Below, in pieces: positions 5,260-51,600 of a stretch of DNA of 64,000 nt. The DNA comes from an uncultured Verrucomicrobia subdivision 3 bacterium (GTDB lineage Bacteria; Verrucomicrobiota; Verrucomicrobiia; Limisphaerales; UBA11358). The notes beneath the pieces were generated by a model that saw only the letters and a program-made list of their open reading frames with translations, had not been told where the DNA came from and did not search any database. The number at the start of each line of letters is the position of its first letter. The stretch's first letter is position 1. Both the position numbers and the translations under genes were made by a program. The stretch is from the NCBI GenBank assembly GCA_903861445.1, contig CAIOUK010000215.1:393-64392 (forward strand), given 5' to 3'.

Positions 5260-5286
5260 ATTTTTTTCTCCGGTTGAATGGCCAAA

Positions 5287-7268: not shown

Positions 7269-7837
7269 TTTTTATCCGGCGGCAGCAGCGCCAGCCCGTT
7301 GATTTCAGTGCTCAAAGTCATTTGCTGACCTTCCTTGTCGCGCGCCGTGAGTTCCAGCGAATCCAGCCGCAGCGCGAGCGGCCCGCGCTCCAGATCGTAA
7401 AGAAACTGGCTCAACGTGCCGAGGGTGCCCGATGTTTCCACACGGCACGTCAGCGTCATATAATTGGTGGACTCATTTTTCCATTGCGGCATCAGGCTCG
7501 TCACTTCCGCGCCGCTGCTGCGCGACCAGCCGTCCACCGCCGTCAGCAATTTTTGCTCCGCGAGCGAGGTGTTCGCCGGCAGCGCATTCACCGTCATGTC
7601 CCGCCAGCGGCTGCGGATGCTGGCTTCACGCTGGAGCAGCCGGTTGCCGTCGGTCACCTTGGTTCGCAAATCCTTGACCTGCGCCTGCCGCGCCGACCAC
7701 CAGCCGCCGAGCGGTGCGAGGACAAAATCTACGCCCACCAGCAACGCAAGCGCTGCGGCGGTCAGCACCACGAGAAATTCCTGACGATTCTTAATTTTCA
7801 CTGCCGCCTCCGTTGTTAAAGTTGAAGCCAAATACAA
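7265..7837 (-). CDS. PilO/GspM-like bitopic inner-membrane assembly protein
   Basis: Single TM (FLVVLTAAALALLVGVDFVLAPL), a coiled-coil-like segment and a ~100 aa periplasmic domain. It sits after the PilM-PilN fusion. An alternative GTG start at 7801 (VKIKNRQEF) would reduce the 47-nt overlap to 11 nt. Confidence 0.55.
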   Translation of the reverse strand: MYLASTLTTEAAVKIKNRQEFLVVLTAAALALLVGVDFVLAPLGGWWSARQAQVKDLRTKVTDGNRLLQREASIRSRWRDMTVNALPANTSLAEQKLLTAVDGWSRSSGAEVTSLMPQWKNESTNYMTLTCRVETSGTLGTLSQFLYDLERGPLALRLDSLELTARDKEGQQMTLSTEINGLALLPPDKK

Positions 7838-9248
7838 ACTGCATCGGCGCCTTGCCGCGAATCTGCTGGAGCTTCACGCCGCTCACACCGTCCGCCGTGC
7901 GCAGTTTGGCTTGCATTGCCAGCAACGCCGCATAATCACGCGCCGTGCCGGAGCAGGTCACCGTGCCGCCATCGCGCACCACAATATTTTTCGCCGTCAC
8001 CGAGCCGTCCTCGGGAAACGCCAGCGACAACTGCCGCAGAATCGAAAGATTTTTGAATGAGCCATCATACCACGGGCGATACTGCCGGATGTTGTTTTGA
8101 ATCGCCGACAACTCGCCGACCTTCACCGCCATGCGCGACCACTGCGAGCGGTAATGCCAGAGTTGAATCTGCTGGAATAAAAATATCGCGAGGAAAATGG
8201 CGGCCACGCCCGCCGCCACCGCGCCCGTCGTCCGAAACCGGCCGGAAGAATATTTGGCGACGAACTGTTCGAGGAAATTCGGCTTCGGCGGCAAAAATTC
8301 AAACGCCAATTTTTGCTCTGCCAAAAAACGCGCCGCCAGACTGAATGCCGGCGACAAAGTCGCTTCCACCGGCAGCGTCACGCCGAATTCCTCCGGCGCG
8401 TAGGCCGCAATGATTTCCACTTTCAAGCCCATCGGCTCGAAGCGCAGATCCAACTCGTCCGTCAACGGCTGCGCCAGTTCGCGCGGGCCAAAGATGCGGA
8501 TGCGCTTCACCGCATCGCGCAATTCGCCCGGTAACTGGCCGAGCGTGACGCGCACTTCGCGCGCCACCACATCCGCGTGCAGCGTGCGCCGCCCCGCTTC
8601 ATCTTCGACCGCGCCGGCGAGCGACCGCAGCGCCGCCATGCCGCCGCCCGCCGTGATTTGCAGGCCGACGTCCGTTTCGCCAATCGCCAGCGCCAGCACG
8701 CCGCCGGATTTTTCCGAGCCGACAAATTGCAGCGCAGAAATTACGGGGGCAAAACTGACCGGCTTCAGTTTTGCCGCCGCCAAAACATTTTCCAGTGCCG
8801 CGAGGTGCGCGCTGGGAATGCCCGCGAACAAAACATTTTTTTTGCCATCCGCCAGCGGCGTCCGTGAATCGCCTATTTGCAACGTTGCCGCGTCCGTGTG
8901 AAAACTTTTTTCCGCTTCGAGTTGCAGCAGGCTCGCCGCGTCCGCGTCCGGCAGCGGCGGCAGCTCGGTCTGCGCCGTCAACACCCATTTCAGCGGCACG
9001 CCGAAAACGCAGTTGCGCTCGCGCACGCCGGCGGCCTCGAGGTGATTGCGGATTTCGCGCCCGACGAGTTCCGGCGCGGCGGTGAGCGGATCCAGCGCGA
9101 GCGTCACGGAAAACTTTTGCAGCACGGCCAGCGAACCGTTCGTGCGCTTGAGCACCACACCCTCCAGTTTGCTGCCGTCCAGCGCGAGGCCGAGCAGCGA
9201 GGTCAGCTTTTTGCCTTGGCCGAATTTAAATTTGAAATCAGGTTTCAT
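7791..9248 (-). CDS. PilM-PilN fusion (GspL-like): cytoplasmic actin-like domain, TM segment, periplasmic PilN-like domain
   Basis: N-terminal PilM-like region (LGLALDGSKLEGVVLKR...LLQLEAEKSFH...LAALENVLAAAKLKPVSFAPVISAL). TM AVAAGVAAIFLAIFLF. C-terminal ~120 aa PilN/GspL-periplasmic-like domain. Confidence 0.65.
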   Translation of the reverse strand: MKPDFKFKFGQGKKLTSLLGLALDGSKLEGVVLKRTNGSLAVLQKFSVTLALDPLTAAPELVGREIRNHLEAAGVRERNCVFGVPLKWVLTAQTELPPLPDADAASLLQLEAEKSFHTDAATLQIGDSRTPLADGKKNVLFAGIPSAHLAALENVLAAAKLKPVSFAPVISALQFVGSEKSGGVLALAIGETDVGLQITAGGGMAALRSLAGAVEDEAGRRTLHADVVAREVRVTLGQLPGELRDAVKRIRIFGPRELAQPLTDELDLRFEPMGLKVEIIAAYAPEEFGVTLPVEATLSPAFSLAARFLAEQKLAFEFLPPKPNFLEQFVAKYSSGRFRTTGAVAAGVAAIFLAIFLFQQIQLWHYRSQWSRMAVKVGELSAIQNNIRQYRPWYDGSFKNLSILRQLSLAFPEDGSVTAKNIVVRDGGTVTCSGTARDYAALLAMQAKLRTADGVSGVKLQQIRGKAPMQFVFGFNFNNGGGSEN

Positions 9249-10614: not shown

Positions 10615-11397
10615 TTAATTTCCCGTCGCGCTGAACAGAACCATGTTCGTCCGTGTCACAGAATCAATCGGCACCACCAGTTGAATCGGCTGCGCCGTCC
10701 GGTTCGCGCCGGCCAGTTGGATTTCCACGCGCACGGCCAGCGGCAGATTCGTGTTCACCGTGGTCGGGTCGGTCGTGTCCCAGACTTCCTGCCATTGTGT
10801 GCCGTCGAAACAGGAAAATTTCACGCTTGCCACGCCGCTCAACAGGAGCTGGTTATCCACAAATGGCGTCGTGGTGGACAACAAATTTCTCAAGACGCTG
10901 CGATACAAATCACGCTGGCCGGAAACCGCGGTGGAATTTTTCAACTCATAGGTCACGCGCTGGATGTCCGCCCACGGCGCGTTCGCGCCCAACGCGCCGG
11001 TCGCCGTGAAAATCTCCGCCACCGCCGGCTCGCTGACGCCGGTGCTGGTGATGCCGGTGCTGGTGATGCCGGTGCCGACGCGGAAGCTGCCGGAGAGAAA
11101 TTTACTCGTGCCGTTGGTGGGCGTGACGACGCATTGCAAATCGCGGCGTAAAAACGTGAAGGCCTGATCCACCGGCGTCGCGGTGTCCACCACGTTGGTC
11201 GTCACCTCGCGCAGGCGCAGCGCGCTGAACAGCACGGCGCTGACCGCGACCAGCACGATGGCCGCCACGCCGATGGCGAGAATCATCTCGACCAGCGTGA
11301 AGGCACATTTCGAACGGCGAATGGCAAATGGCGAATCCGCCGCCACGCCGAGCGCGGCAGCCATTCGTAATTCGTAATTCGTAATTCGTAATTTCAT
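10615..11397 (-). CDS. GspJ-like minor pseudopilin (prepilin-type N-terminal methylation motif)
   Basis: Motif AFTLVEMILAIGVAAIVLVAV. ATG 11397 overlaps the upstream stop as ATGA. An alternative ATG at 11364 would leave the heptamer tract as a 30-nt spacer. The longer ORF in the track (start 11523) overlaps the upstream gene and is not favoured. Confidence 0.7.
   Translation of the reverse strand: MKLRITNYELRMAAALGVAADSPFAIRRSKCAFTLVEMILAIGVAAIVLVAVSAVLFSALRLREVTTNVVDTATPVDQAFTFLRRDLQCVVTPTNGTSKFLSGSFRVGTGITSTGITSTGVSEPAVAEIFTATGALGANAPWADIQRVTYELKNSTAVSGQRDLYRSVLRNLLSTTTPFVDNQLLLSGVASVKFSCFDGTQWQEVWDTTDPTTVNTNLPLAVRVEIQLAGANRTAQPIQLVVPIDSVTRTNMVLFSATGN
11363..11397. repeat. heptanucleotide tandem repeat: attcgta x4 plus one degenerate unit
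   Basis: Plus strand reads attcgtaattcgtaattcgtaattcgtaatttcat. On the coding strand it would encode KLRITNYELR of the prepilin leader if ATG 11397 is used. Confidence 0.95.
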
Positions 11398-11804
11398 TGC
11401 GTCATGTTCAAAGTTGTCGCGCCCGGCAGACTCGCCAGCGTGTCCAGCTTCACCGAATAATCTTTGCCCTGTGCGGAAAATTTCACTTCCGCCGTCACCA
11501 GTTGCATTGCGTCCTGCGGCCACGACTGGCTCGTGAGCGTCCAGCTAAAATTCTGTGCGCCCTCGCTTGTCGTGCCGCTCTGCGTGCCGTTGTTCCAGTT
11601 CGTCAGCACCAAACTCTCGTTCAAAATCCGGTCGGCCACGCGCACCGCCGCGCCCTTGCGCGCCGCGACCTCGCCCGCGAGGCTGGCGACGTGCATGGCT
11701 TCGATCGCCACCGGCACGACGATGGCCAGAAACAACAGCGCCACCATGACCTCGACCAGCGTGAAGGCGGGTGGACGCCTATTTTTCGCGGTCGTTAATC
11801 TCAT
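11394..11804 (-). CDS. GspI-like minor pseudopilin
   Basis: MRLTTAKNRRPPA/FTLVEVMVALLFLAIVVPVAI prepilin motif. The 136 aa size is typical of GspI. It lies between the H-like and J-like genes. Confidence 0.7.
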   Translation of the reverse strand: MRLTTAKNRRPPAFTLVEVMVALLFLAIVVPVAIEAMHVASLAGEVAARKGAAVRVADRILNESLVLTNWNNGTQSGTTSEGAQNFSWTLTSQSWPQDAMQLVTAEVKFSAQGKDYSVKLDTLASLPGATTLNMTQ

Positions 11805-12336
11805 AACCCTGATGGTTGTCCGTTTCTGCCAGCCAGCGGGAAAACCCCGCGCTGTCTGTCAATTTTAACTGCTGCGGGCTGCCTTCATCCACCGCGCCGT
11901 CCGGCAGAAATCGGATGGCCGGCAGATTTCTGAAAGACGTCGCCGTTCCGCTGCCGGTTTTCACCACGGTAAATTTCAAGGTCGGATCCACCGTCAAATT
12001 TTCCGCCTTCGCGTCGCCGTTCTGGCCGCTGGTTTCGGCTTCCGCGCCATACTGGCCGGTTTTTTCATCCAGCCAAAAAATCATCGGCATTCCTTCCGAC
12101 ACCGCGCGGCTTTGCGTGGTGTGTATGAGCGCCAGCATCCGCCGCGCCTCGGAATCCAACGCGCGGCCCTGAATGAAACCGGATATGCGCGGCACCACCA
12201 AGGCGGTCATAACCACCAGTAACGCCAGCACCAAAATCAATTCAATGAGCGTGAAGGCGGAGGCGGATTTCGCGTTGCAAATTTCAAATGACAAATGGCG
12301 ACCGGTCGTTCGCGCTGCCGGCATTCGCAATTTCAT
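11779..12336 (-). CDS. GspH-like minor pseudopilin
   Basis: ATG 12336 lies 2 nt after the gspG stop. Motif SASA/FTLIELILVLALLVVMTALVVPRISGFIQGRALDSEARRML. The ORF-track start at 12462 would overlap gspG and is not favoured. Confidence 0.7.
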   Translation of the reverse strand: MKLRMPAARTTGRHLSFEICNAKSASAFTLIELILVLALLVVMTALVVPRISGFIQGRALDSEARRMLALIHTTQSRAVSEGMPMIFWLDEKTGQYGAEAETSGQNGDAKAENLTVDPTLKFTVVKTGSGTATSFRNLPAIRFLPDGAVDEGSPQQLKLTDSAGFSRWLAETDNHQGYEINDREK

Positions 12337-12338
12337 TT

Positions 12339-12794
12339 TTATTTTGCCCAACTGACAATATCGTCGTCCGTGCCTTCCTTGCCGTCCGGGCCGACGGACA
12401 GCAGGTCGTAGGAACCGGGCGTGTGTTTGCCGGGAAAAGTGTATATGTAAGGATGATGCCACTGGTCCACCGGCAGGCTTTCCAGATACGGCCCGTGCCA
12501 GTCCCGCGCGTTGCTGGGGGGCGTGACCAAATCCTGTAGGCTCTTGGGATACGAACCCATGTCCACTTCATATTGGCCGAGTGCCGACTTGATGCCGCCG
12601 TTGATGTCGGTTGTGGTCGCCGTAATCCGGGCGCGTTCGCTGGAGCCGGCGATCCGGGGAATGACCAGCGCGGCCAGAATGCCGATGATGACCACCACCA
12701 GCAGAATTTCCACAAGGGTGAACGCGCGGCGCAACCGGGATGATTTGGGAACAAGTTTTTTGATTTCGATTTTCATAAACAGTTTGGTTTTCAT
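12339..12794 (-). CDS. gspG: major pseudopilin GspG
   Basis: ATG 12794 overlaps the gspF stop as ATGA. Motif RRA/FTLVEILLVVVIIGILAALVIP. The C-terminal T2SS_G signature DWHGPYLESLPVDQWHHPYIYTFPG...YDLLSVGPDGKEGTDDDIVSW is present. Confidence 0.9.
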   Translation of the reverse strand: MKTKLFMKIEIKKLVPKSSRLRRAFTLVEILLVVVIIGILAALVIPRIAGSSERARITATTTDINGGIKSALGQYEVDMGSYPKSLQDLVTPPSNARDWHGPYLESLPVDQWHHPYIYTFPGKHTPGSYDLLSVGPDGKEGTDDDIVSWAK

Positions 12795-14035
12795 TTGATG
12801 TTTTGGCTCATAGTCAGCACCGGCAGCAGCATGCCGATGAAAATAGTGCCGATGAAACCGGCGATCAGGAACAACATCAGCGGTTCGGCCAGCGCAACGG
12901 CGGTTTTCAAGTTGCGGTCCAAATCGGCCTCCGTGACGACGGCCACCCGGACCAGTTCGGCGTCGAGCTTGCCGCTTTCCTCGGCGACGGAAATCATTTC
13001 CAGCACCGAACCGGAAAAGAGCGCCTTGCAATCGGCCAGGCTCTGGCCGAGCCGTCCGCCCTGCTGCACGCGTTCAATGGCCTGCGCCACGGCATCCACG
13101 AGAATCTGATTGCCAATCGAGCGGCGCGCCACGTTCAAGCCCTGCACCAGCGGCACGCCTGCGCCGATCAAGGTGCCGAGCATCCGGCAGAAACGGGCCA
13201 TGGCAAATTGCGCGATGAGCGGGCCGGCGAGCGGCGTTTTCAAAATTATTCCCTCCCAGACGCGCCGGCCTTTTTCCGAGACCAGCCAGGCGCGCACGAG
13301 AAAAAGTGCCACGACCAGCGCGGCGGCGACGAACAAACCATACGCCCGGATCAAATCGCTTGCGCCGATGATGATTTTCGTGAGCAACGGCAGCGAACCG
13401 TGGATGCTGTTGAACAGGTTCCGCAGCATCGGAATAAAAAAAGTCAGCAGCGCGACGAGCACGCCCACGGCCAGCACCAGCAGGATGCAAGGATACAGCA
13501 TGGCCTGCATCACCTTTGATTTCAGGTCTTTCTCGCGCGCTTGAAATTCCGCGATCTGCGCCAGCACCACGTCCAGAAATCCGCCCGCCTCGCCCGCTTC
13601 GACCATCGCGACATAGACGCGCGGAAAAGTTTCCGGCGATTTCGCCATCGCATTCGCCAGCGACATGCCATCTACCACGAGGTCGTGAATTTGTTTCCAC
13701 TGCGCTTTTGACGCCGGCGACGACGCTTCTTTCTGTAAAATCACCAGCGCGCGGCTCAACGGCACGCCCGCCGCCAGCAGACTGGAAAGCAGCCGGGTAA
13801 AATTTTCTAGTTCCTTCGCGGAAACTTTTTTGGACGCGAAATCGAAAGTGATATTCCCCAATGACGACGGAGCAGCGGAACCTTTTTTGCCGGCGGAATT
13901 TTTCTCCAACAAGTTTACCGGACGCAAGCCGAGCGTTTCCATCTGCCGCAGCGCGTCGGGGCGACCGGCGGCGTCCAACACGCCCACGGCCATTTTGCCG
14001 TCGCGCTGCAAGGCTTTGTAGGCAAAAGTAGGCAT
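12791..14035 (-). CDS. gspF: type II secretion inner-membrane platform protein GspF
   Basis: 414 aa with two T2SSF-type repeats and three TM segments. Characteristic stretches are FTRLLSSLLAAGVPLSRAL and FCRMLGTLIGAGVPLVQGL. Confidence 0.95.
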   Translation of the reverse strand: MPTFAYKALQRDGKMAVGVLDAAGRPDALRQMETLGLRPVNLLEKNSAGKKGSAAPSSLGNITFDFASKKVSAKELENFTRLLSSLLAAGVPLSRALVILQKEASSPASKAQWKQIHDLVVDGMSLANAMAKSPETFPRVYVAMVEAGEAGGFLDVVLAQIAEFQAREKDLKSKVMQAMLYPCILLVLAVGVLVALLTFFIPMLRNLFNSIHGSLPLLTKIIIGASDLIRAYGLFVAAALVVALFLVRAWLVSEKGRRVWEGIILKTPLAGPLIAQFAMARFCRMLGTLIGAGVPLVQGLNVARRSIGNQILVDAVAQAIERVQQGGRLGQSLADCKALFSGSVLEMISVAEESGKLDAELVRVAVVTEADLDRNLKTAVALAEPLMLFLIAGFIGTIFIGMLLPVLTMSQNIK

Positions 14036-22540: not shown

Positions 22541-23872
22541 ATGACCAACCCCGCTCCCATCGCCGTCGTCGGGCTGGGCTATGTCGGGCTGCCTTTGAGT
22601 TTGCAATTCGCCCGCTCCGGCGTGCGAGTGTTGGGCTTGGACATTGATCCCGCCAAGGTGGCCGACCTCAATGCCGGGTGCAGCTACATCAGCCACATTC
22701 CGGCGGCTGAAATTCAGGCGCAGCGCGCGGCGGAACAATTCGAGGCGAGCACGGATTTTTCCCGCGTGCGCGAAACGCAGGCGGTGCTGATCTGCGTGCC
22801 AACGCCGCTGACGAAAAAACGTGAACCCGATTTATCTCACGTCCTCAATACCGCGCGCGCCATCGCGCCGCATCTGCGGCGGGACAAATCGGAAATCGGA
22901 AATCGGAAATCGGAAATTCCTTTGGTTGTGCTCGAATCCACCACCTATCCTGGCACGACCGAAGGCGAATTGCGCCGCGAACTGGAAACCGGCTCCGGGT
23001 TAGTAGCGGGCAAAGATTTTCATCTCGCTTATTCACCGGAACGCGAAGATCCCGGCCAGCCGGAACATCGGCTGGCGGACATTCCGAAAATTGTCGGCGG
23101 CCTCACGCCCGCCTGTCGCGAACGGGCCATAGCGCTTTATCAGCAAGCCATTCGCACGCTGGTGCCGGTTTCCTCGTGCCGCGCCGCCGAAGCCACCAAG
23201 CTGCTCGAAAATGTTTTTCGCAGCGTCAACATCGCCCTCGTCAACGAATTGAAGTCGGTTTACGGCGCGATGGACATTGATATTTGGGAGGTCATCGCCG
23301 CCGCGAAAACCAAGCCGTTTGGCTTCATGCCGTTTTATCCGGGGCCGGGACTCGGCGGTCATTGTCTTCCCATTGATCCGTTTTATCTGGCTTGGAAAGC
23401 GCGTGAATTTGGCCAGCCAACGCGCTTCATCGAACTTGCCGGTGAAATCAACACCGCCATGCCGCAGCAAGTTGTCGGTGTGGCAGTCGCCGCGCTGGCC
23501 GCGCAAAAAAAATCCGTGTCCGGCGCGCGCGTCCTGATTCTTGGTCTGGCTTACAAGGCCGATTTAGACGACGACCGCGAATCACCCGCCTACCGGCTGT
23601 TGGATTTGTTGAGCGAACGCGGCGCGACCGTGGCTTATCACGATCCGTATGTGTCGGTCATTCGCGCCACGCGCGAACATCCGCATCGGGCCGGTCAAGA
23701 ATCAGTGGCGTGGACGCGCGAAAATATTTCCAGCTTTGACGCCGTGGTCGTTGTCACCGCGCATCAGGCGGTCAATTATCAGGAACTCGCCGACTGGTGT
23801 CCGTGTATCGTGGACACGCGGAATGTCATGGCGAAAGTTCACACCCAACCTGGTCAAGTCTGGAAGGCATGA
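22541..23872 (+). CDS. nucleotide-sugar 6-dehydrogenase (UDP-GlcNAc/UDP-ManNAc dehydrogenase family)
   Basis: ATG 22541 (the ORF-track start 22508 is TTG). N-terminal Rossmann motif IAVVGLGYVGLPLSLQFARSG. Catalytic region FYPGPGLGGHCLPIDP. C-terminal UDP-binding domain VLILGLAYKADLDDDRESPA. Contains an in-frame heptamer-derived insert (see repeat 22886-22917). Confidence 0.9.
   Translation: MTNPAPIAVVGLGYVGLPLSLQFARSGVRVLGLDIDPAKVADLNAGCSYISHIPAAEIQAQRAAEQFEASTDFSRVRETQAVLICVPTPLTKKREPDLSHVLNTARAIAPHLRRDKSEIGNRKSEIPLVVLESTTYPGTTEGELRRELETGSGLVAGKDFHLAYSPEREDPGQPEHRLADIPKIVGGLTPACRERAIALYQQAIRTLVPVSSCRAAEATKLLENVFRSVNIALVNELKSVYGAMDIDIWEVIAAAKTKPFGFMPFYPGPGLGGHCLPIDPFYLAWKAREFGQPTRFIELAGEINTAMPQQVVGVAVAALAAQKKSVSGARVLILGLAYKADLDDDRESPAYRLLDLLSERGATVAYHDPYVSVIRATREHPHRAGQESVAWTRENISSFDAVVVVTAHQAVNYQELADWCPCIVDTRNVMAKVHTQPGQVWKA
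22886..22917. repeat. heptanucleotide tandem repeat aaatcgg x4.6 inside the dehydrogenase gene
   Basis: aaatcggaaatcggaaatcggaaatcggaaat. It encodes KSEIGNRKSEI between HLRRD and PLVVLESTTYPGTTE. Confidence 0.95.
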
Positions 23873-25388: not shown

Positions 25389-25512
25389 TCCTCGCAATAA
25401 GCTGAAATTCTCAGACCTGAGACCGGAAACGCGACCACTGATTTCCGACATTAAAAACCTCGATTTTGCAGTTTAAGTATTTCAGATTTCATCCTGTTTT
25501 TTTTGATTGTTT

Positions 25513-27942
25513 ATGTTGATTAAACGTTTCCAAATCCTGACCTGCCTCGTCTCAATTGCGGTCGTTGCCCTGCTGGCTTGGCCAACTCATGGCAACGCGG
25601 CGGCGCCAAAGGTCAAAATGCCCAACCCGGATTTCACCAAAGGCGAACCCATCCCGCCGGACGCCAACCATGACTGGAATCTCGGTGCCACCGGCGTGCG
25701 CGGCTGGATGTTCACCGGCCGGACGTTTGCCACCACCGAGGCGCGCCAGATTAAAATCACCAAGGTCGCCAAAGGCTCGCCCGCCGATGGTTTACTCGCG
25801 GTGGGCGACGTAATTCTCGGTGTCGGCGGCAAACCCTTTTCATACGATCCGCGCACGGAGTTTGGTAAGGCGCTCACCGTTGCGGAATCCGAGGCCGCCG
25901 GCGGCAAATTGCGTGTGACCCGCTGGCGGGCCGGTCACACGGAAGAGGTCACCATCAAACTACCGGTGCTCGGCACCTACAGCGCCACCGCGCCGTTTGA
26001 TTGCCCAAAATCGAAACGCATCTTCGAACAAGGCTGTGCGCTGTTGGCCAAACGCGTCGCCGCGCCAACCTATCATCCCGACCCGATCATCCGTTCGTTA
26101 AATGCGCTCGCACTGCTGGCCAGCGGTAAACCGGAATACCTTCCCGTGTTGCGCAAGGAAGCGCAGTGGGCTTCGGGGTTCTCCGCCGAGAGCATGGCCA
26201 CGTGGTATTACGGCTACGTCATGATGTTTCTGGCCGAATACAAAATGGCCACCGGCGATGAATCGGTCATGCCCGGATTGCAGCGGCTGGCGCTGGAGGC
26301 GGCCAAGGGCCAAAGTGCGGTCGGTTCGTGGGGGCACAAATTTGCCCGCCCCGATGGCCGGCTCAATGGCTACGGCATGATGAATTCACCGGGTGAGCCG
26401 TTGACCATCGCCATGGTGATGGCGCGCGCCGCCGGCGTCAACGACCCCAAAGTTGCTCATGCCATCGAAATGAGCGCGCGGCTTTTGAGGTTTTATATTG
26501 GCAAAGGCTGCGTGCCCTACGGCGACCACGCGCCGTGGATGCAGAGTCATGATGACAACGGCAAATGCGGCATGGCCGCCGTGCTGTTCAACTTGTTGGA
26601 TGAACCCGCCGGCGCCGATTTCTTCGCGCACATGAGCCTGTGCTCGTTTGGTCCGGAGCGCGATTGTGGCCACACGGGAAATTATTTCAACATCGTCTGG
26701 GCCATGCCCGGCGTCGCGCTCTCCGGCCCGCAGGCCACGGGCGCGTGGATGAAGGAATTCGGTGAGTGGTATTATGATCTCTCCCGCGAGTGGGATGGCA
26801 GCTTTGCGCATCTGGGGCCGCCGCAGGCAAGCAGAGATAGCTACGGTGGTTGGGACGCCACTGGTGCCACCCTGTTGGCTTATGCCGTGCCGCTGAAAAG
26901 TCTCTGGCTCACCGGCAAGCGCCCCACTCAGGTTCCCCAGCTCAGTGCCAGCGAGGCGGAACAGTTCATCCGCACCGGGCGCGGCTGGTCGCAGGGTGAT
27001 AAATTCAGTTACTACGACAAGTTAAGCGACGACGAATTGATTGCCGATCTCGCCAGTTGGTCGCCCATCGTGCGCGATCGCGCGGGGACTGCGCTGGGTC
27101 GCCGCCAGGAAGCCCCGGTTGCCCGCGTGCTGGCGCTGCTCAATTCTCCGTCCCTCGATGCGCGCCTCGGCGCGTGCCAGGCCATCGTCCAGCTCAAGGA
27201 CCGGGCCGCTGCCGCCGTTCCCGCATTGCGTCAGGCCCTGCATGCGGACGAACTCTGGTTGCGGATCAACGCCGCCGAAGCGCTCGCCGCGATTGGCAAG
27301 CCGGCGATGGTGGCCGTCCCAGATATGCTGGAATTGTTGTCTCAGGTTGACCCGAAACAAGACCCGCGCGGTATGCAGCAGCGCTATTTTACCGGTGCCC
27401 TGTTTGGTGCTCGCAACGGATTGCTGGGACACTCTCTCGAAAATGTGGATCGCAATCAAATCTACGCGGCGGTGCGCGCCGGATTAAAAAACGAAGACGG
27501 CGCTGCTCGGGGCGTCTTTAGCACCGTTTATAAAAACCTTTCCGCAGAGGAGATCAAACCGTTGTTGCCCACCATTCTGCAAGCGGTGGTCGAGTCTGCT
27601 CCCAGCGACGAGATGTTTGCCGATGGCATCCGCCTGGATGGCCTGCGCATTTTGGCCGCCCATCATGTGGCGGAAGGATTGACCGCCGGCGTCAACTATC
27701 TCCGCGACCAAAATCCTTGGGGCAGCGAAAAGCGCACGATTGAATTGACCAAAACCCTGGCCAGTTACGGAGCATCCGCCAAGGTTGTCATTTCCGAACT
27801 CACGCGCATTGCGGATGGCTTTGCGGCCGGCGAACCCAATGCCTCCAAGCAATCGAGCCTCAATAAAGCCGCCACCGTCCGGGCGGCCATCCAAGAAATC
27901 GCCGCCGCCACTGACCACACGAAACTCATCCATATCCAATAA
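25513..27942 (+). CDS. secreted PDZ-like, alpha/alpha-toroid-like and HEAT-repeat protein (paralog 1; resembles DUF6288-type PVC proteins from memory, unverified)
   Basis: Signal peptide MLIKRFQILTCLVSIAVVALLAWPTHGNA. PDZ-like IKITKVAKGSPADGLLAVGDVILGVGGKPF. Central ~350 aa helical-repeat region (SAVGSWGHKF...PYGDHAPWMQSHDDNGKCG...GHTGNYFN). C-terminal HEAT/PBS-lyase-like repeats (DARLGACQAIVQLKDRAAAAVPALRQAL...WLRINAAEALAAIG). Confidence 0.8.
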   Translation: MLIKRFQILTCLVSIAVVALLAWPTHGNAAAPKVKMPNPDFTKGEPIPPDANHDWNLGATGVRGWMFTGRTFATTEARQIKITKVAKGSPADGLLAVGDVILGVGGKPFSYDPRTEFGKALTVAESEAAGGKLRVTRWRAGHTEEVTIKLPVLGTYSATAPFDCPKSKRIFEQGCALLAKRVAAPTYHPDPIIRSLNALALLASGKPEYLPVLRKEAQWASGFSAESMATWYYGYVMMFLAEYKMATGDESVMPGLQRLALEAAKGQSAVGSWGHKFARPDGRLNGYGMMNSPGEPLTIAMVMARAAGVNDPKVAHAIEMSARLLRFYIGKGCVPYGDHAPWMQSHDDNGKCGMAAVLFNLLDEPAGADFFAHMSLCSFGPERDCGHTGNYFNIVWAMPGVALSGPQATGAWMKEFGEWYYDLSREWDGSFAHLGPPQASRDSYGGWDATGATLLAYAVPLKSLWLTGKRPTQVPQLSASEAEQFIRTGRGWSQGDKFSYYDKLSDDELIADLASWSPIVRDRAGTALGRRQEAPVARVLALLNSPSLDARLGACQAIVQLKDRAAAAVPALRQALHADELWLRINAAEALAAIGKPAMVAVPDMLELLSQVDPKQDPRGMQQRYFTGALFGARNGLLGHSLENVDRNQIYAAVRAGLKNEDGAARGVFSTVYKNLSAEEIKPLLPTILQAVVESAPSDEMFADGIRLDGLRILAAHHVAEGLTAGVNYLRDQNPWGSEKRTIELTKTLASYGASAKVVISELTRIADGFAAGEPNASKQSSLNKAATVRAAIQEIAAATDHTKLIHIQ

Positions 27943-28076
27943 CTCCGCCGGACGGCTTTTTCCATAAGGAAGAGCATGAGAGCAATGGGGATGATTTTCA
28001 GGGTTTGCCAATCAGACTACGGATCGCTGACTAATGACTACTGACTTCCGCTTTCAGTCTTTCGTTTTTTAATTTT

Positions 28077-30237: not shown

Positions 30238-30274
30238 CCGCAGATTTCAGCTTTCAGAATTTCTGTTTCAACTT

Positions 30275-33095: not shown

Positions 33096-34378
33096 AAAAC
33101 GACGCGATCATATCAGTCGAAAACCTCGGTAAAAAATACCGCATCAGTCATCAGGCTGAACGGCAGCGCTACACCGCCTTGCGCGACGTGTTGGCCAACA
33201 AGGTCAAAGGCTTATTCCAAAATCGGAAATCGGAAATCGAAAATCAGAAATCGGTGGAGGATTTTTGGGCCTTGCAGGACGTTTCCTTTGAGGTCAAGCG
33301 CGGCGAAGTCGTTGGCATCATCGGGCGGAATGGCGCGGGCAAGAGCACGCTGCTGAAAATTCTGAGCCGCATCACCGAGCCGAGCACCGGCCGCGTGGAT
33401 TTGCGCGGGCGCGTGGCGAGCCTGTTGGAAGTCGGCACCGGATTTCATCCCGAACTGACCGGACGCGAAAATGTCTTTTTGAACGGTGCGATCCTGGGCA
33501 TGAGTCGGGCGGAGATCCGGAGGAAATTTGACGAGATCGTGGCCTTTGCCGAGGTGGAGAAGTTTTTGGACACACCGGTGAAACGCTACAGCAGCGGCAT
33601 GTATGTGCGCCTGGCCTTTGCCGTGGCCGCGCACCTGGAACCGGAAATCTTGATCGTGGACGAAGTGCTGGCGGTAGGTGATGCGCAGTTTCAGAAGAAA
33701 TGCCTAGGCAAGATGCAGGATGTCAGCAAAGGCGGTCGAACCGTGCTCTTTGTCAGTCACAACATGGTGGCCGTGCAAACCCTCTGCCACCGCGCCTTGT
33801 GGTTGCGCGATGGTAAGTTGATTGCGGATAGGGACGTGGCTCCAGTCGTTGCGGATTACCTGCGTGGATTCCACGGCCAAGACGACATCCAGCAATGGGA
33901 CGACCCCAAAACCGCGCCCGGCAACGACGCGCTCCGGATTAGAAGCGTCCGGCTGATTCCCGAAACCAGCGGGGATGACAATCTCATTTCCATGCAGACA
34001 CCGTTCCGGATTGAAACCGAATTCTGGGTGCTGGACGCCAGCCGCCAACTGCACTTCACCTATCATTTGCTCAATGACCAGGGCATCACGGTGTTGACTA
34101 CCGGCTTCCCGATGCAAGTGCATCCAGTGGGTCACCACAAGGCCGTCTGCCATTTGCCCGGCAACCTGCTCAACAGCGGCGGCTACTCCCTGAAATTGCT
34201 CGTGGTGGAGAATGGCAACAAGGTGACTTATATCCGTGAAAGCATTGCCAGTTTTACCGTCGTGGATATTGCGGAAAGAAAAGGTTCTTGGATGGGACGG
34301 GAACCGAGTGTTGTCCGGCCTATCTTAAATTGGAATGTGGAAACTTTAAAAACAAACAGTTCTTCTACGCATAATTAG
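33092..34378 (+). CDS. wzt: polysaccharide export ABC ATPase with a C-terminal glycan-binding-type domain (Wzt/TagH family)
   Basis: TTG start overlaps the upstream stop. Walker A GRNGAGKSTLLK, signature YSSGMYVRLAFA, Walker B ILIVDEVLAVGD, then a ~170 aa beta-rich C-terminal extension. Confidence 0.9.
   Translation: MKNDAIISVENLGKKYRISHQAERQRYTALRDVLANKVKGLFQNRKSEIENQKSVEDFWALQDVSFEVKRGEVVGIIGRNGAGKSTLLKILSRITEPSTGRVDLRGRVASLLEVGTGFHPELTGRENVFLNGAILGMSRAEIRRKFDEIVAFAEVEKFLDTPVKRYSSGMYVRLAFAVAAHLEPEILIVDEVLAVGDAQFQKKCLGKMQDVSKGGRTVLFVSHNMVAVQTLCHRALWLRDGKLIADRDVAPVVADYLRGFHGQDDIQQWDDPKTAPGNDALRIRSVRLIPETSGDDNLISMQTPFRIETEFWVLDASRQLHFTYHLLNDQGITVLTTGFPMQVHPVGHHKAVCHLPGNLLNSGGYSLKLLVVENGNKVTYIRESIASFTVVDIAERKGSWMGREPSVVRPILNWNVETLKTNSSSTHN
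33220..33254. repeat. heptanucleotide tandem repeat (aaatcgg, aaatcgg, aaatcga, aaatcag, aaatcgg) inside wzt
   Basis: It encodes NRKSEIENQKS just upstream of the Walker A region. The unit family is the same as in the dehydrogenase gene. Confidence 0.9.
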
Positions 34379-43750: not shown

Positions 43751-45136
43751 ATGAATTTGGAACGGAATAAAATTTCAGAACCAGATGAGGCAACCGGCAG
43801 GCGCGGGCGTCCGGTTCAGACCCGGCGGGAGCCGTTGGCCGATGAGAAAATAAAGCTGGCGTGGCTCGTGTTACTGACGGCCTTGGCGATGACGGTGCTG
43901 GAAGGGGCGTTCCGCAAATGGGTGTTCCCCCAGGGCGGAGCGGTTAAGTATCTGCTGTATTTTTCCAAGGACATCATTTTTGCGACCATTCTTTTCCTGC
44001 CCAAACGAAGCCAGCCCTCGCTGGCGTTAGAGAGTTTTTCTAACTGTCTGCTGCCCGGTTGTGTGCTGATCGGGCTGGGGGCGATCGCAAGTTGCCAGCA
44101 TGGGTTCAACCCAGTTGGTTCCATTTTAACCATCCGGGCACTGATCGTGCTGCCGGTCATCGCCTGGCTGGTGGTGCCCCGGTTGGCGGGTTTGCCCCTG
44201 CGCTGGGTGGCTGGGCTGCTGACTGTTTTTGTCCTGCTAAATTTTGCGTTGGGTATGGAGCAAAACCGCCTGCCCAAGGATCATTGGCTGAACCATTATG
44301 CGGATGCTGAAATGGAGGTGGTGGAATTGGAATCCGGGGTGCGCGCCACCGGCACCTTTGCCTACATCGCTGGATTAGGGGTCATTTCCACCGTGGGCAT
44401 TTGGGCGGGACTGGCGTTGATGAGCGTGGCCAGAAGCCAATGGCAGCGTCTGTGGGGGTGGGTGGCTCTGGTTGCGGGCTTTGGCTGCGGACTGGCCTCT
44501 ATCTCCCGTGCACCCATTGTCATCGCCGCCGCCATGGTGGCAGGGTGGCTGGTATCCTTTCGCGACAGTGTTTCGCTGCTGATTCGCGGGTTGGTCATGG
44601 GGCTGGTCTGTCTGGGGCTGGCGTTTGTGCTGGGGCTGGCTCCCGCCTTTTCCCATCTATGGCAGGGTTTGGAGGAACGGGCTAATCAGGGCAGCGATAG
44701 CTTTAACCAGCGGGCGTTTGGATCCTTTGGCGAAACCCTTGTCGCCCTGCAAGCCGCGCCGTTTGGCAATGGTTTTGGCACAGAACAGATCGGTGGGCAA
44801 TACTATGCCACCGGCGCGGCGGGCTTCAACCATTTTGAAAGCACCCTCCCCCGGCTGGTCATGGAAACTGGGCTTTTAGGCTTGATTGGCTATTTTGTCG
44901 TTGCTGCCGGTGTGATCATGGCTCTGCAAACCGCCAAACTCGGCGCGTCACCCGGCGCCAAGTCAGCCCTGCTGGCCACCCAATTATTTTTGGGAGTCAT
45001 GCTGTCCATGGGCGGCGTGATATTCAACCACACGGCTGCGGACTTCGTCTGGATTATTTTTGCGGCGGTCTTGGCAGGAGTGGGCAACGGGGAAAGCAGA
45101 AATTTGGAAAGTAGAAAACAGAGACCTGACCTCTGA
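43751..45136 (+). CDS. O-antigen ligase/polymerase-like (Wzy_C-type) polytopic membrane protein
   Basis: About 11 TM segments with a larger loop containing ISRAPIVIAAAMV and FGNGFGTEQIGG. This is the general layout of WaaL/Wzy-like proteins found in exosortase-linked EPS loci. The C-terminal tail GESRNLESRKQRPDL is read from a heptad tract. Confidence 0.6.
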   Translation: MNLERNKISEPDEATGRRGRPVQTRREPLADEKIKLAWLVLLTALAMTVLEGAFRKWVFPQGGAVKYLLYFSKDIIFATILFLPKRSQPSLALESFSNCLLPGCVLIGLGAIASCQHGFNPVGSILTIRALIVLPVIAWLVVPRLAGLPLRWVAGLLTVFVLLNFALGMEQNRLPKDHWLNHYADAEMEVVELESGVRATGTFAYIAGLGVISTVGIWAGLALMSVARSQWQRLWGWVALVAGFGCGLASISRAPIVIAAAMVAGWLVSFRDSVSLLIRGLVMGLVCLGLAFVLGLAPAFSHLWQGLEERANQGSDSFNQRAFGSFGETLVALQAAPFGNGFGTEQIGGQYYATGAAGFNHFESTLPRLVMETGLLGLIGYFVVAAGVIMALQTAKLGASPGAKSALLATQLFLGVMLSMGGVIFNHTAADFVWIIFAAVLAGVGNGESRNLESRKQRPDL

Positions 45137-45147
45137 CCACTGACCTC
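45092..45147. repeat. eight in-phase heptads spanning the stop codon of the ligase-like gene
   Basis: gaaagca gaaattt ggaaagt agaaaac agagacc tgacctc tgaccac tgacctc. Confidence 0.85.
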
Positions 45148-45161
45148 TCAAGTTTTTTCAT

Positions 45162-46412
45162 ATGAAAAAAACTTCCGTCATCGTTTCCTACAGCGGCGTG
45201 CATCAGGCGTTTCAGATTGCCTTGGCGACGCAGGAGGCCGGATTGCTGGACAGTTTTTATGGTTCCATTTTTGATGCACCCGGTAAATGGGGCCAGAAGT
45301 TGAGCCAAGTCATGGGAAAGGAAGCATTAAGCAACCGTCGGTGTGTCGGGTTGCCTCCAGAAAGATTGGTGGAATATCCGTGGCCGGAATTATTTGCGCG
45401 CCTCAAACGACTCACCGGTTGCGCCCGCCGGGATGAATGGCTTTGGACGGCCCGGCAATTTGACCGGCATGTCGCTCGGCTGATTGCCAAGAAAAACTGC
45501 CGCCTGTTAATCGGCGTTGAAAATTGCGCCGTCGAATCATTCCGTGTGGGCCGCGCGCGGGGCATGAAACTGGTTTATGATTGCCCGGGCTTTAACCCTG
45601 AAGTTTCCGATCAGGCGGCACTGCGCGCGGCCGTCGAGTGGCACTTGCCGCGTCCGCTGCCTTCGGATGCCCCCGCCATCAAGGTCAGCAAGGATCAGGA
45701 GTTGGCGCTGGCGGATTGCGTGCTGGTGTATTCGGAAGTGCATCAGCGGAGCTGGGCGCAACGCGGTGTGCCGACGGAAAAATTCGTCCGCATCCCCTTG
45801 TGGATTGAACCTGATTTGTGGCGGCCAAAGGTGGCAACGAGCAACCACCAAGTTCCATTGCGGGTGCTGTATGCCGGGCGCGGCACGTTGATGAAGGGCG
45901 TGCCTTACTTGTTGGAGGCTGTAAAAAAATGTGGCCGCCGGGTGCAACTGGATTGCGTTGGGAACCTTCAGTTGGAACTTCAGCCGCTGGCGGCGGGATT
46001 GACCAACGTCAAATTTCTCCCACCCGTGCCCAAATCCCAACTCCGAGAGGTTTATTGCAACCATGATGTGCTGGTTTTGCCCTCGCTGGGCGATTCCTTC
46101 GGGTTTGTGGCCTTGGAAGCGATGGCGTGCGGATTGCCGGTGGTGGTGACGGAGAATTGCGGGGTGCCAGTGCCCGATCCGGCGTGGCGTGTGCCCATCA
46201 TGGACAGCGCGGCGATTGCCCAGCGGCTGGAATACTACGCCACGAACCGCGAGGCATTGCAGCATGACGGACAAGTGGCACAACAGTTTGCCCGGCAATT
46301 CACGCCGGAACGCTATCGCGAACAAATCAAAAAGTTGCTAGGGAACCTGTTGAGTAAATCAGAAAGTGGAAAGTGGAAAACAGAAACGGGAATTAAAAAT
46401 ATCGAAAGTTGA
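45162..46412 (+). CDS. glycosyltransferase family 4
   Basis: LYAGRGTLMKGVPYLL and LGDSFGFVALEAMACGLPVVVTENCG. The C-terminal tail SKSESGKWKTETGIKNIES is read from a heptad tract. Confidence 0.85.
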   Translation: MKKTSVIVSYSGVHQAFQIALATQEAGLLDSFYGSIFDAPGKWGQKLSQVMGKEALSNRRCVGLPPERLVEYPWPELFARLKRLTGCARRDEWLWTARQFDRHVARLIAKKNCRLLIGVENCAVESFRVGRARGMKLVYDCPGFNPEVSDQAALRAAVEWHLPRPLPSDAPAIKVSKDQELALADCVLVYSEVHQRSWAQRGVPTEKFVRIPLWIEPDLWRPKVATSNHQVPLRVLYAGRGTLMKGVPYLLEAVKKCGRRVQLDCVGNLQLELQPLAAGLTNVKFLPPVPKSQLREVYCNHDVLVLPSLGDSFGFVALEAMACGLPVVVTENCGVPVPDPAWRVPIMDSAAIAQRLEYYATNREALQHDGQVAQQFARQFTPERYREQIKKLLGNLLSKSESGKWKTETGIKNIES

Positions 46413-47604: not shown

Positions 47605-48804
47605 ATGCACATCGCTCACGTTCAGGGAATCTTTTCGCCGGAACACGGCGGGCCCACCCAGTCGTTGAGCAATTATTGCCGGGGGCAGGTGGCGGCAGGT
47701 CATCGCGTGGCCGTTTGGACGTTGGAGGGCTATCCCGGCACTTCCCCGGCCCGCCGGCTGCCGTTGCCGGTGGAGATGCATGTGTTCCCGCTAGCGGCAC
47801 CAGCCCGGCTCGGACGCTCCCCCGCCATGCGCCGGGCATTGGCACAGGTTGAACCACCGGACGTCTATCATCTCCACGGAGCATGGCTGCGAGCCATGGC
47901 CTACGGCGCGAACGCGGCCCGTCAGCAACGGCGACCCTATGTGCTGGAAGTGATGGGTATGTATGAAGACTGGGCGCTCCGCCAAAAATGGCACCAAAAA
48001 CGGCTCGTGCGCTGGTGGTTTCAGGATCGGGTGCTGCGCGAGGCGAATTGTCTGCATGTGAATTCCCAGCAGGAAGCGGATGACTTACGCCGGCTGGGCT
48101 TCAAAGCGCCGGTGGCGGTGATCCCGGTGGGCGTGGATATGGAAAAAATAGAAGACCTGAAATCCGAAATCCGAAATCAGGAGTCAGCCATCGAAGTGCA
48201 ATTAAAGAATCATCCGTTCGTGTTGTTCCTCTCCCGCCTGCATTACAAGAAAGGCCTCGATTTGTTGATTCGGGCTTGGGCGGCAGTCAAAAAGTCAGAT
48301 GTCAGCGGTCAGCGGTCAGAATGGCTGCTGGCCATTGCGGGCACTGGCTCGCCGGAATATGTGCACGAGTGTCGCCAACTAGCCGAACAGTTGGGGATTG
48401 CTAAACAATGCCTTTGGCTGGGTCATGTGGACGAATGGCAAAAGAGTTGGTTGTATGCCCGCGCGCATTGCTACGTCCTGCCCACCAACAGCGAAAATTT
48501 TGGCAACACGGTCGCCGAAGCCCTGGCGCATGGCACGCCGGTCATCACGACCATCCACACTCCGTGGGCGGACTTGGAGAAGCATCGTTGCGGCTGGGTG
48601 GTGAATAATACCGTGGAGGCACTGCAACCAGCCCTGATGCAAGCCCTCGCGCTGGACGCCGCCAGCCGGCGCAACATGGGGGCGGCGGGCCAAAAGTGGG
48701 TGCGTGAGGCTTACTCATTGAAATCCGTGTTGAACAGCGTTGAAAGTGTTTATCATTGGGTGGCCGCCGGCGGGTCGCCGCCGGATTGCGTCCGTCTGGA
48801 TTAG
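47605..48804 (+). CDS. glycosyltransferase family 4
   Basis: [35 protein letters not shown] and [22 protein letters not shown]. Contains two short heptamer tracts in loop regions. Confidence 0.9.
48159..48179. repeat. heptanucleotide repeat gaaatcc x2 plus gaaatca inside the GT4 gene
   Basis: It encodes LKSEIRNQ in the inter-domain linker after VIPVGVD. Confidence 0.85.
48301..48320. repeat. heptanucleotide repeat gtcagcg x2 plus gtcaga inside the GT4 gene
   Basis: It encodes VSGQRSE in a loop before LLAIAGTG. Confidence 0.85.
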
Positions 48805-49977: not shown

Positions 49978-51600
49978 TTGAATTCAGCTTTCAAATCTCA
50001 ATTCGCAGTTTTTCGACTCGCGCTTTGCGCTTTGCCGCTGGTCTGGCTGTGGTGCGTTCTGCTCAATGACCTCCGCGTGGAATGGACCGTCAATCCGCAA
50101 TACGCCTACGGCTGGGCCGTGCCGTTCTTGTGTATTTTTCTCCTGCTCCGAAAAATTTTCCGACCTACAGCTGGAATCACTCCGCCGGCAACGGCCAACT
50201 TCCGGCTATCGCCGATTCTCTGCCAAATCATTTTCGGGTTGCTGGCGTTGCTCTATTTGCCCGCTCGTCTGATTCAGGAAGCCAATCCCGGCTGGCGGCT
50301 CGTGAGCTGGGCGCTGGCCATTTCAGTCATCGGCATCACTCTTTGCGTTCTGCGCTCGGCGCTTGGCGCTTCGCGCCTTCAGGTTTCAGGTTTCAGGTTT
50401 CAGGTTTCGGACTTTGCTTTCCCACTGTTTTTTTTCCTCGTGGCCGTGCCATGGCCGACGCTGATTGAAAATCCGTTGATCCAAACCCTGACTCACTTTG
50501 ATGTCCGCGCGACGTGTGATTTGGCCGGCTGGCTCGGCATTCCAGCCATCCCGCACGCCAACGTCATCGAGGTGGCGACGGGCTTGGTGGGCATCGACGA
50601 AGCGTGCAGCGGCATCCGTTCATTCCAAGCCACGCTGATGATTTCACTGTTCCTCGGTGAGTATTATGCCTTGGGACTTGCCCGTCGGCTATTCTGCGTG
50701 GGGTGCGGATTTTTACTGGCCTTGCTGCTCAATCTCGTCCGATTGCTGGTGCTGGTCTGGGTGGCGGCGCAGCGAGGGATTCCAGCCACGACCCGGTGGC
50801 ACGACCCGACGGGGGTGTTCATTTTGCTCGGTTGCTTCTTTGTGTTATGGGGCATTGGAGTCTGGCTGGCGCCAGCAAAAGCCAAGTTAGAAGTCAGCAG
50901 TCAGCAGCCAGCAACTGGAAGTCAAAACTCAAAACCCTCCGCCTCCGAACTTTCCGTTTTCCGTTTTCCGTTTTCTGCGGTGGCCTTAACCGGCTGGCTG
51001 CTGTGCGTGCAAGTGGGCGTGGAAGGCTGGTATCGGTGGCATGAAACCCGGTTGCCCGCCGCGACGGTTTGGCAAGTGGCGTGGCCGACCAACAATCCCA
51101 CTTTCACCGAGCGCGACATTCCGGTGACTTCGCGGCAAATCCTTCGGTTTGATGACGGGCGCAATGCCGGCTGGCAGGAGGATAATCTAAATTGGCAGGT
51201 GATTTTTCTCCACTGGCAACCCGGCCGTGCGGCCGTGCGGCTGGCGCAGAACCACACGCCCGAAGTTTGTCTGGCGGCCGTCGGCCATCAGCTTACCGGG
51301 GGTAGAGAATTGCAATTCCTCGCGGTCAACGGTTTGAAAATGCCGTTCCGTTTTTATCAACTCACCGATACGCCGCAGCCAGTCTTCGTGGCCTATTGCT
51401 TATGGAACGACCGGGCGGGTTCCCGCAAGTTTGAAACTAGCTCCCTGACGGCCAGCAGTCGAATCGCCGCCGTGCGAGCGGGTCAACGCAACGCCGGCCA
51501 ACGCTCACTGGAAATCGCCCTTACGGGTCTAAGCGATCTTGCTGCGGCCCAAACCGCCGTGCAACAGTTGCTCGAAAAAATCATTGTGCCCGAACGGTGA
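49978..51600 (+). CDS. exosortase fused to a C-terminal EpsI-family domain
   Basis: TTG start (uncertain). Polytopic N-terminal ~300 aa with the exosortase catalytic region GIDEACSGIRSFQATLMISLFLGE and NLVRLLVLVW. A low-complexity linker, then TM SAVALTGWLLCVQVGV and an EpsI-like domain with HTPEVCLAAVGH. Confidence 0.85.
   Translation: MNSAFKSQFAVFRLALCALPLVWLWCVLLNDLRVEWTVNPQYAYGWAVPFLCIFLLLRKIFRPTAGITPPATANFRLSPILCQIIFGLLALLYLPARLIQEANPGWRLVSWALAISVIGITLCVLRSALGASRLQVSGFRFQVSDFAFPLFFFLVAVPWPTLIENPLIQTLTHFDVRATCDLAGWLGIPAIPHANVIEVATGLVGIDEACSGIRSFQATLMISLFLGEYYALGLARRLFCVGCGFLLALLLNLVRLLVLVWVAAQRGIPATTRWHDPTGVFILLGCFFVLWGIGVWLAPAKAKLEVSSQQPATGSQNSKPSASELSVFRFPFSAVALTGWLLCVQVGVEGWYRWHETRLPAATVWQVAWPTNNPTFTERDIPVTSRQILRFDDGRNAGWQEDNLNWQVIFLHWQPGRAAVRLAQNHTPEVCLAAVGHQLTGGRELQFLAVNGLKMPFRFYQLTDTPQPVFVAYCLWNDRAGSRKFETSSLTASSRIAAVRAGQRNAGQRSLEIALTGLSDLAAAQTAVQQLLEKIIVPER
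50378..50410. repeat. heptanucleotide tandem repeat ttcaggt x4 plus a partial unit inside the exosortase gene
   Basis: ttcaggtttcaggtttcaggtttcaggtttcgg. It encodes LQVSGFRFQVSD in a loop before FPLFFFLVAVPWPT. Confidence 0.95.
50893..50976. repeat. block of heptad units forming the exosortase-EpsI linker
   Basis: gtcagca gtcagca gccagca ... gtcaaaa ctcaaaa ... ttccgtt ttccgtt ttccgtt ttctg. It encodes SSQQPATGSQNSKPSASELSVFRFPFS. Confidence 0.85.

Follow-up and report, generated by a model that had tools for sequence, protein, structure and literature searches.

The question raised by the 64,000-nt stretch of contig CAIOUK010000215.1 (assembly GCA_903861445.1) analysed here, hereafter the window, is whether a heptanucleotide repeat lying inside a nucleotide-sugar dehydrogenase gene can switch that gene on and off. 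The host metagenome-assembled genome (MAG) is described as Verrucomicrobiota subdivision 3, Pedosphaera/Limisphaera-like. A first-pass annotation of the window had read the 4.6 copies of the heptamer, placed in frame in the gene, as the classic layout of a phase-variable gene. Analyses of the tract and of its counterparts in related lineages revealed an old insertion whose units have been homogenised lineage by lineage, and alleles shorter by exactly one unit were identified in relatives. We consider it somewhat probable that the tract is a slippage-prone, switch-like frameshift hot spot in a surface-glycan gene, and a contingency-type on/off switch is plausible.

Tandem Repeats Finder (TRF) and translation of the open reading frame (ORF) confirmed the annotated tract. 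Window positions 22886-22917 (AAATCGGAAATCGGAAATCGGAAATCGGAAAT) form a perfect AAATCGG run of 32 nt and 4.6 copies with 100% matches (TRF score 64), and codons 116-126 (22886-22918) encode KSEIGNRKSEI between the flanks HLRRD and PLVVLESTTYPGTTE. An identical tract is present in L001-L003, which are independent assemblies, and recurs in L172, L005 and L168, which represent other species; this ruled out an assembly or chance artefact as its origin.

The protein matched Pfam families PF03721 (N-terminal NAD-binding, 138 bits), PF00984 (central, 104 bits) and PF03720 (C-terminal UDP-binding, 75 bits), and its score of 403 bits against NCBIfam TIGR03026 (cut-off 189.8) places it in the nucleoside diphosphate (NDP)-sugar dehydrogenase family. 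It scored under every NCBIfam cut-off for the substrate-specific equivalogs, among them WecC/UDP-ManNAc dehydrogenase and TviB (NF008286, 228 against 459; NF011729, 204 against 592; NF040825, 244 against 750). The gene is located upstream of epimerases, Wzm/Wzt, an aminotransferase, many glycosyltransferases, Wzy_C and an exosortase; by homology it heads a predicted Wzm/Wzt-type polysaccharide locus, and its product would thus serve a surface trait.

The unit is not divisible by three and lies inside an ORF, and a change in unit number would alter the product, as the annotation had argued for steps of one or two units. Simulation of such steps yielded truncated products of 151 aa (one unit lost), 248 aa (one unit gained), 241 aa and 158 aa. 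All four end before the region of Cys275, which as part of a GGHC motif was invariant in 50 homologs of the dehydrogenase.

Alignment to known structures agreed with the further proposal that about 11 residues had been inserted into a short turn. The phmmer alignments to 3g79 and 3ojl (Cap5O) revealed 11-residue gaps exactly at KSEIGNRKSEI, and that to 4r16 showed gaps of 8 + 3 residues at the same segment. Among the 120 closest homolog clusters, nearly all of them from Verrucomicrobiota, 69 have only a 3-residue turn (e.g., HLQ-RGT-LVVLEST) and the other 51 carry insertions of 3-55 residues at the same point. The AlphaFold2 model (mean predicted local distance difference test, pLDDT, 82) showed residues 112-127 as coil between a helix (99-111) and a strand (128-131), with a block pLDDT of 91 directly before the loop and of 66 and 65 at the loop itself. 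The tract is thereby modelled as sitting in a permissive surface loop of the dehydrogenase, which is the kind of site the annotation had expected.

An insertion of the same length was present in at least 19 verrucomicrobial homolog clusters with 68-92% identity, and a recent private insertion was thus ruled out. As judged from this distribution, the insertion is old and common to many related species at one fixed in-frame length. P0003, an 88% identical, syntenic ortholog from the same sample series as the window (ENA ERZ1426847, 7.6-kb contig), is without the insertion and has the ancestral QKGA turn, while more distant orthologs (71-84% identity) do carry it; this pattern points to recombination, either of the loop segment or of the gene as a whole. 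In a neighbour-joining tree, sequences with and without the insertion were intermixed, and the common RRD...IP flanks tentatively argue for a single origin of the insertion plus recombination.

Other elements were also observed in this loop. In L017 and L018 10238-10470 (proteins P0108 and P0097) it holds a hairpin-forming insert that resembles a miniature inverted-repeat transposable element and is translated as ...PLPVGRGEG...; in L018 this insert breaks up a 2.6-unit AAATCGG array. Heptamer arrays of CACTCCG occupy the loop in P0023 and P0032, and P0112 has 7-aa periodic repeats there.

The DNA of the orthologous site was taken from genome and metagenome contigs, and among the matches listed most were array-less orthologs. 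An identical, perfect AAATCGG x4.6 array was found in the window, L172, L005 and L168; the tract is 32/32 identical between genes that are otherwise only 88% (L172), 80% (L005) and 72% (L168) identical in nucleotides to that of the window. Further lineages have units of their own: L164 carries a perfect AAAGCGG x4.6, L166 carries CAATCGG and then ACATCGG x3.6, and L086 carries AAATCAC x3 and then a variant unit. L005 contains two paralogous dehydrogenases (4407-5735 and 11621-12940), both with a 33-nt insertion, and the units of the second are AAATCGC instead of AAATCGG. L169 has one synonymous interruption (CGG to CGA) that leaves the peptide unchanged, and L004 and L084 have 3-4 point changes in the array. 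P0083 resembles an in-frame variant of P0039 that is three units shorter.

Identity of 32/32 in genes only 72-88% alike indicates that homogenisation is faster than point mutation. Since the same position is altered in every unit, independent point mutations were ruled out as the cause of the differences between units. On the strength of these alignments, the lineage-specific units represent concerted evolution, which needs turnover of units by slippage or conversion, and homogenisation implies that such turnover continues. At a constant in-frame length, homogenisation would be reached most simply via cycles of loss and gain through frameshifted intermediates. With a period of 7 nt, which 3 does not divide, every base of the unit comes to stand in all three codon positions across the array, and a homogenised change is never silent; this may partly explain why the unit changes slowly.

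Such conservation may instead reside in the peptide. If the 11 residues were kept by protein selection, e.g., as a regulatory or interaction loop, the DNA repeat would be incidental; the strictly conserved length, the KSEIGNRKSEI sequence identical in 9 clusters with 71-92% identity and the change in L169 that keeps the peptide are consistent with this. The peptides vary widely by lineage, however (KSEIGNR, KAESGKR, QSDIGHR, KSQITNH and KSAIANR), and what is constant is the 7-nt periodicity of the DNA. P0003, with its 88% identity and same synteny, is entirely without the loop, and the loop is modelled as a low-confidence coil. We regard a functional peptide loop as very unlikely.

The array could also be conserved as a nucleic acid, e.g., as a structured regulatory RNA or a platform for protein binding. 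At the nucleotide level the tract is better conserved than the remainder of the gene, and elsewhere inverted heptamer arrays form hairpins in spacers, as between gspE and gspF of L041. Against this, no complementary array was found nearby, the RNA fold of the region was no better than that of shuffles (z = 0.28), no Rfam match was obtained anywhere in the window, and the unit sequence varies between lineages and between loci. Hardly any likelihood is left for a nucleic-acid element.

Exact one-unit losses that split the dehydrogenase were identified in public assemblies of three related lineages, L166, L164 and L086, two of them at the DNA level and one, P0122, from the gene table. P0121 is the exact product predicted for loss of one unit in the L166 lineage, and its 674-nt contig, L174, differs from L166 by the absence of one unit and by nothing else (100% identity over 674 nt). 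P0122, on a contig of 28.6 kb, matches exactly what loss of one unit is predicted to yield in the L164 lineage; the gene is called there as 147 + 290 aa, and the start of the next gene is 1325 nt away instead of 1332, a spacing 7 nt shorter. P0125 derives from L175, a 13.3-kb Joint Genome Institute contig that aligns with L086 along 12,566 nt at 99.61% identity; 41 single-nucleotide polymorphisms (SNPs) are scattered through the alignment. Only two indels separate L175 and L086: a poly-G tract differs by 1 nt, and L175 lacks exactly one heptamer unit, so that its dehydrogenase is split into 196 + 247 aa. Length variants were seen in only about 3 of about 50 assemblies. The poly-G tract (G8 in L175, at about 2992, against G7 in L086), a possible second hypermutable site, is found a short way upstream of a GT4 glycosyltransferase gene encoded on the - strand.

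In the reading we favour, a heptanucleotide microsatellite resides in frame in the permissive dehydrogenase loop, and slipped-strand mispairing would keep gaining and losing 7-nt units. This turnover would keep the array pure and would let a variant unit spread through the whole array. Each one-unit step would create a frameshifted null allele, because 7 is not a multiple of 3, and the predicted products of the -1 and +1 steps would have neither the UDP-binding nor the catalytic part. A slip in the other direction would repair the reading frame, and the locus would then behave as an ON/OFF hot spot of the contingency type, with a low copy number, that acts on a precursor of surface glycans; cycling of this kind through frameshifted intermediates would be the behaviour of a contingency locus. 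The ON length would be preserved by selection as OFF alleles arise in nature, and these may be put to adaptive use.

Heptamer repeats form a population spread over the whole genome and clade, to which the tract belongs. Counting perfect period-7 arrays of 18 nt or more, the window has 9 (100 shuffles gave a mean of 0.02 and a maximum of 1), and 17 of its 47 TRF rows have period 7. In 1.3 Mb of other Verrucomicrobiota loci, 50 perfect period-7 arrays were found, and any other period reached at most 8. Over-representation of period 7 is a property of the whole genome and clade. The perfect heptamer arrays of all loci reach 32 nt at most, and many of them measure 25-32 nt; an apparent ceiling of about 4.5 units was observed across arrays. 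The 59 arrays comprise 39 different canonical units and lie mostly inside ORFs, and they do not form a single-unit heptamer family of the kind represented by Xanthomonas GGGAATC, the cyanobacterial short tandemly repeated repetitive (STRR) sequences or Beggiatoa TAACTGA.

Table 1. Dehydrogenase gene, its heptamer array and further heptamer arrays in the window and in related loci (positions refer to the window unless a locus is named).
Feature	Position	Strand	Context
NDP-sugar dehydrogenase gene, 443 aa	22541..23872	+	UDP-GlcNAc/UDP-ManNAc 6-dehydrogenase type by homology (Pfam, NCBIfam)
Heptanucleotide array (AAATCGG)x4.6	22886..22917	+	With base 22918, a 33-nt, 11-codon insertion
AAATCGG array, 5 units with 2 point changes	33220..33254	+	In frame, N-terminal region of Wzt-type ABC ATPase (QNRKSEIENQKS)
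Adjacent arrays CGAATGG x3.7 and ATTCGTA x4.4	11311..11393	-	Leader peptide (MKLRITNYELRM...SPFAIRRS) of GspJ-like pseudopilin, gene 10615-11523
Arrays GAAATCC x2.9 and GTCAGCG x2.7	48159..48319	+	In frame, between two GT4 domains of a glycosyltransferase
Five arrays GCGCTTT, GCGCTTG, TTCAGGT x4.4, AGTCAGC and TTTCCGT x3.6	50020..50975	+	In frame, exosortase (EpsH family) gene
CTGACCT x3.3 and GAAAGTG x2.6	45126..46379	+	Across the stop codon of a Wzy_C-like gene and in the C-terminal tail of a GT4 protein, respectively
TGACTAA x2.7	28028..28046		Intergenic
Further spacer arrays	30241-30263, 47484-47501		Intergenic
Pseudopilin-leader arrays, L041	18554-18640, 18989-19100
Pseudopilin-leader arrays, L048	18776-19900
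Pseudopilin-leader arrays, L052	12421-13130
Pseudopilin-leader array, L035	18492-18522
Pseudopilin-leader array, L060	18838-18855

Arrays were found in and around several other genes of the window (Table 1), and the Wzm permease also contains one. The Wzt ortholog of L164 has the same length and a perfect 37-nt array (L164 3054-3090); this array is a perfect AAATCGG, while the dehydrogenase array of the same genome has switched to AAAGCGG. With its 2 substitutions, the Wzt array of the window has kept its length but is partly decayed. In the pseudopilin of the window the arrays directly precede the prepilin motif (MKIEIRNPKSEIRNRQR followed by AFTLVEM), and array-encoded leaders before an (A/G)FTL(I/V)E motif were also identified in pseudopilin genes of L035, L041, L048, L052, L060 and L080. 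The three spacer sites hold different arrays in the relatives L172 and L005. Array-encoded peptides of the exosortase gene (49978-51600) include LQVSGFRFQVSDF and SVFRFPFS.

The gspE-gspF spacer contains a hairpin built from inverted arrays, first (CAACATT)n and then (AATGTTG)n (L041 17170-17265, L052 10670-10694). A scan of all fetched loci for one- or two-unit changes that would fuse ORFs had brought up L041 and L052 as candidate OFF genes, and both were rejected since they prove to be these intergenic inverted arrays. L166 contains a dispersed repeat of about 265 nt composed of degenerate TTTCAGC/GTCAGC heptamers (6952-7216, 7344-7454 and 8622-8885), with several copies among small toxin-antitoxin-like ORFs. 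Paralogous DUF6288-HEAT proteins of 811 and 831 aa (25507-27942 and 54418-56913) flank the polysaccharide locus of the window.

The abundance of such arrays brings in a simpler explanation, in which the tract is a neutral microsatellite carried passively in a permissive loop as a result of a genome-wide 7-nt slippage bias, and the shorter alleles are dead-end mutations or artefacts. Heptamer arrays are everywhere in the clade and occur where an arbitrary peptide is tolerated, that is, in loops, cleaved prepilin leaders, linkers, gene ends and spacers; the dehydrogenase loop itself accepts unrelated insertions in other lineages. A number of findings favour this explanation or otherwise weigh against a switch. 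Similar arrays in many kinds of genes and in spacers make a dedicated switching role unnecessary to explain the tract. The inserted length is invariant across the 19 or more clusters with 68-92% identity, so that within the subclade the segment is also a conserved loop. With only 4.6 units, the array is short for a high-rate switch, as documented phase-variable heptanucleotide tracts of Haemophilus influenzae have 8-38 units (PMC2651432).

Searches for length alleles added to these points. The exact window protein, P0001, is encoded on 7 public contigs, and no length variant was found among them; L001-L003 align without gaps. The products predicted for alleles of -3 to +3 units in the window lineage were absent from a collection of 15 billion proteins, and the lineages of P0002 (10 contigs) and P0026 (8 contigs) contained no length variant. 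Exact look-up revealed no allele one unit longer or two units shorter, the only changes being contractions of one unit, and the near-identical contig pairs (window/L001-3, L164/L165, L166/L167, L169-171, L172/L173 and L084/L004) showed no length polymorphism of any array. The search for alternative-frame products returned only array-less homologs with frameshifts at scattered positions, which indicate a background of errors or pseudogenes in the protein collection.

Comparison of the window with the conspecific contigs showed that all SNPs are near contig ends (18392-18996 and 20306-20369 for L001, 21906-22164 for L002) and that the dehydrogenase gene is 100% identical. Given this clustering and identity, the conspecific contigs are not independent strains as far as the tract is concerned.

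The shorter alleles could moreover be produced by assembly. When k is about 24 or less, a period-7 array of 30-32 nt becomes a cycle of 7 nodes in the de Bruijn graph, and skipping the cycle drops exactly one unit; such a collapse could mimic a one-unit loss, above all in the short contig L174. An artefact is less likely for the two long contigs of 13.3 and 28.6 kb. The neighbouring 37-nt Wzt array of the P0122 contig escaped collapse and still encodes a product of 429 aa, and L175, separated from its ON partner by 41 scattered SNPs, is a distinct strain. A neutral loop would also be expected to accumulate changes more quickly than the rest of the gene, whereas no other DNA of the gene is as well conserved as the tract, and homogenisation of the unit lineage by lineage at a fixed in-frame length is likewise at odds with a passive passenger. 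We judge the passive explanation to be rather improbable, though with a weight of its own.

For the expectations of the first-pass annotation the outcome is divided. The phase-variable layout found support in the one-unit-loss alleles of three related lineages, but the unit number is low, and the genome-wide occurrence of arrays means that the layout is not special to this gene. The expected heterogeneity in unit number was seen in assemblies of those three lineages, where an assembly artefact may play a part, and was not found in the window, P0002 and P0026 lineages. As for the possibility that the segment is a conserved native loop, which had been named as evidence against insertion, the PDB homologs and 69 of the 120 clusters are without it, but its length is conserved within the subclade.

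The switch-like reading can be widened to a heptanucleotide contingency system of the whole clade of free-living subdivision-3 Verrucomicrobiota. Dozens of envelope genes (glycan enzymes, the Wzt ATPase, exosortase and type II secretion pseudopilin leaders) would each carry an array, about 4.5 units in size and no longer than 32 nt, that is kept pure by slippage and able to switch its gene, and a lineage-specific property of replication or repair would set the period and the ceiling. We think it unlikely that the system extends so far.

To our knowledge, contingency loci driven by simple sequence repeats (SSRs) are known almost only from host-adapted pathogens, and a literature search returned no report of SSR contingency loci or of heptamer over-representation in Verrucomicrobia. 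The present case offers a repeat whose in-frame length is the same from species to species although its unit has been homogenised again and again, and null alleles exactly one unit shorter in wild relatives. Metagenome reads would allow a direct look at whether environmental bacteria vary their surface glycans by hypermutable repeats, for instance under pressure of phages or grazers. The arrays also place periodic 7-residue peptides (KSEIGNR, SEIRNPK and FQVSGFR) in many predicted proteins, and genes can be split by them in assemblies; both effects matter when verrucomicrobial MAGs are annotated.

SSR-mediated frameshift switching with a long heptanucleotide SSR is plausible here as a mechanism of a known kind. 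What is unusual is the free-living, uncultured verrucomicrobial host, the position in an internal loop of an enzyme, the ON length conserved deep into the clade together with concerted evolution of the unit, and the genome-wide population of arrays. Intragenic contingency loci are formed by tetranucleotide and poly-G tracts in lipooligosaccharide, lipopolysaccharide and capsule genes of Haemophilus, Neisseria and Campylobacter. As in those loci, where slippage turns the gene ON and OFF, the coding region of a glycan or surface gene contains a unit whose length three does not divide. The leader peptide of Neisseria opa contains CTCTT repeats, and the pseudopilin leader-peptide arrays of this clade resemble that layout. 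Glycan contingency loci are few per genome, unlike the arrays described here, which are genome-wide.

The heptanucleotide SSRs of H. influenzae comprise (TGAAAGA)n upstream of hmw1A/hmw2A and the intragenic tracts (AATTTTG)14 and (AACAACC)8-13 (PMC2651432; see also PMC8262952). They share with the present arrays the 7-nt unit, the association with surface genes and, going by the shorter alleles of the relatives, differences in unit number between strains that alter expression or frameshift an ORF. The H. influenzae tracts differ between almost all strains of a host-adapted pathogen, whereas the tract described here has 4.6 units and a fixed ON length across species, and it is found in the internal loop of an enzyme of a free-living, uncultured Verrucomicrobium.

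In bacterial genomes, heptamers are over-represented among the long SSRs (Mrazek et al. 2007, cited in PMC4692102). Examples are the Xanthomonas GGGAATC repeats, the Nostoc GGGGA(C/T)T repeats and the cyanobacterial STRR heptamers, and a slippage bias related to the polymerase footprint has been tentatively proposed as the cause (PMC4692102). The arrays of the window and its relatives are similar in the strong enrichment of period 7 over other periods and in that most arrays have about four units. The Xanthomonas, Nostoc and STRR repeats are mostly intergenic with one G-rich unit per genome, whereas the present arrays comprise dozens of units and many of them lie in frame in genes.

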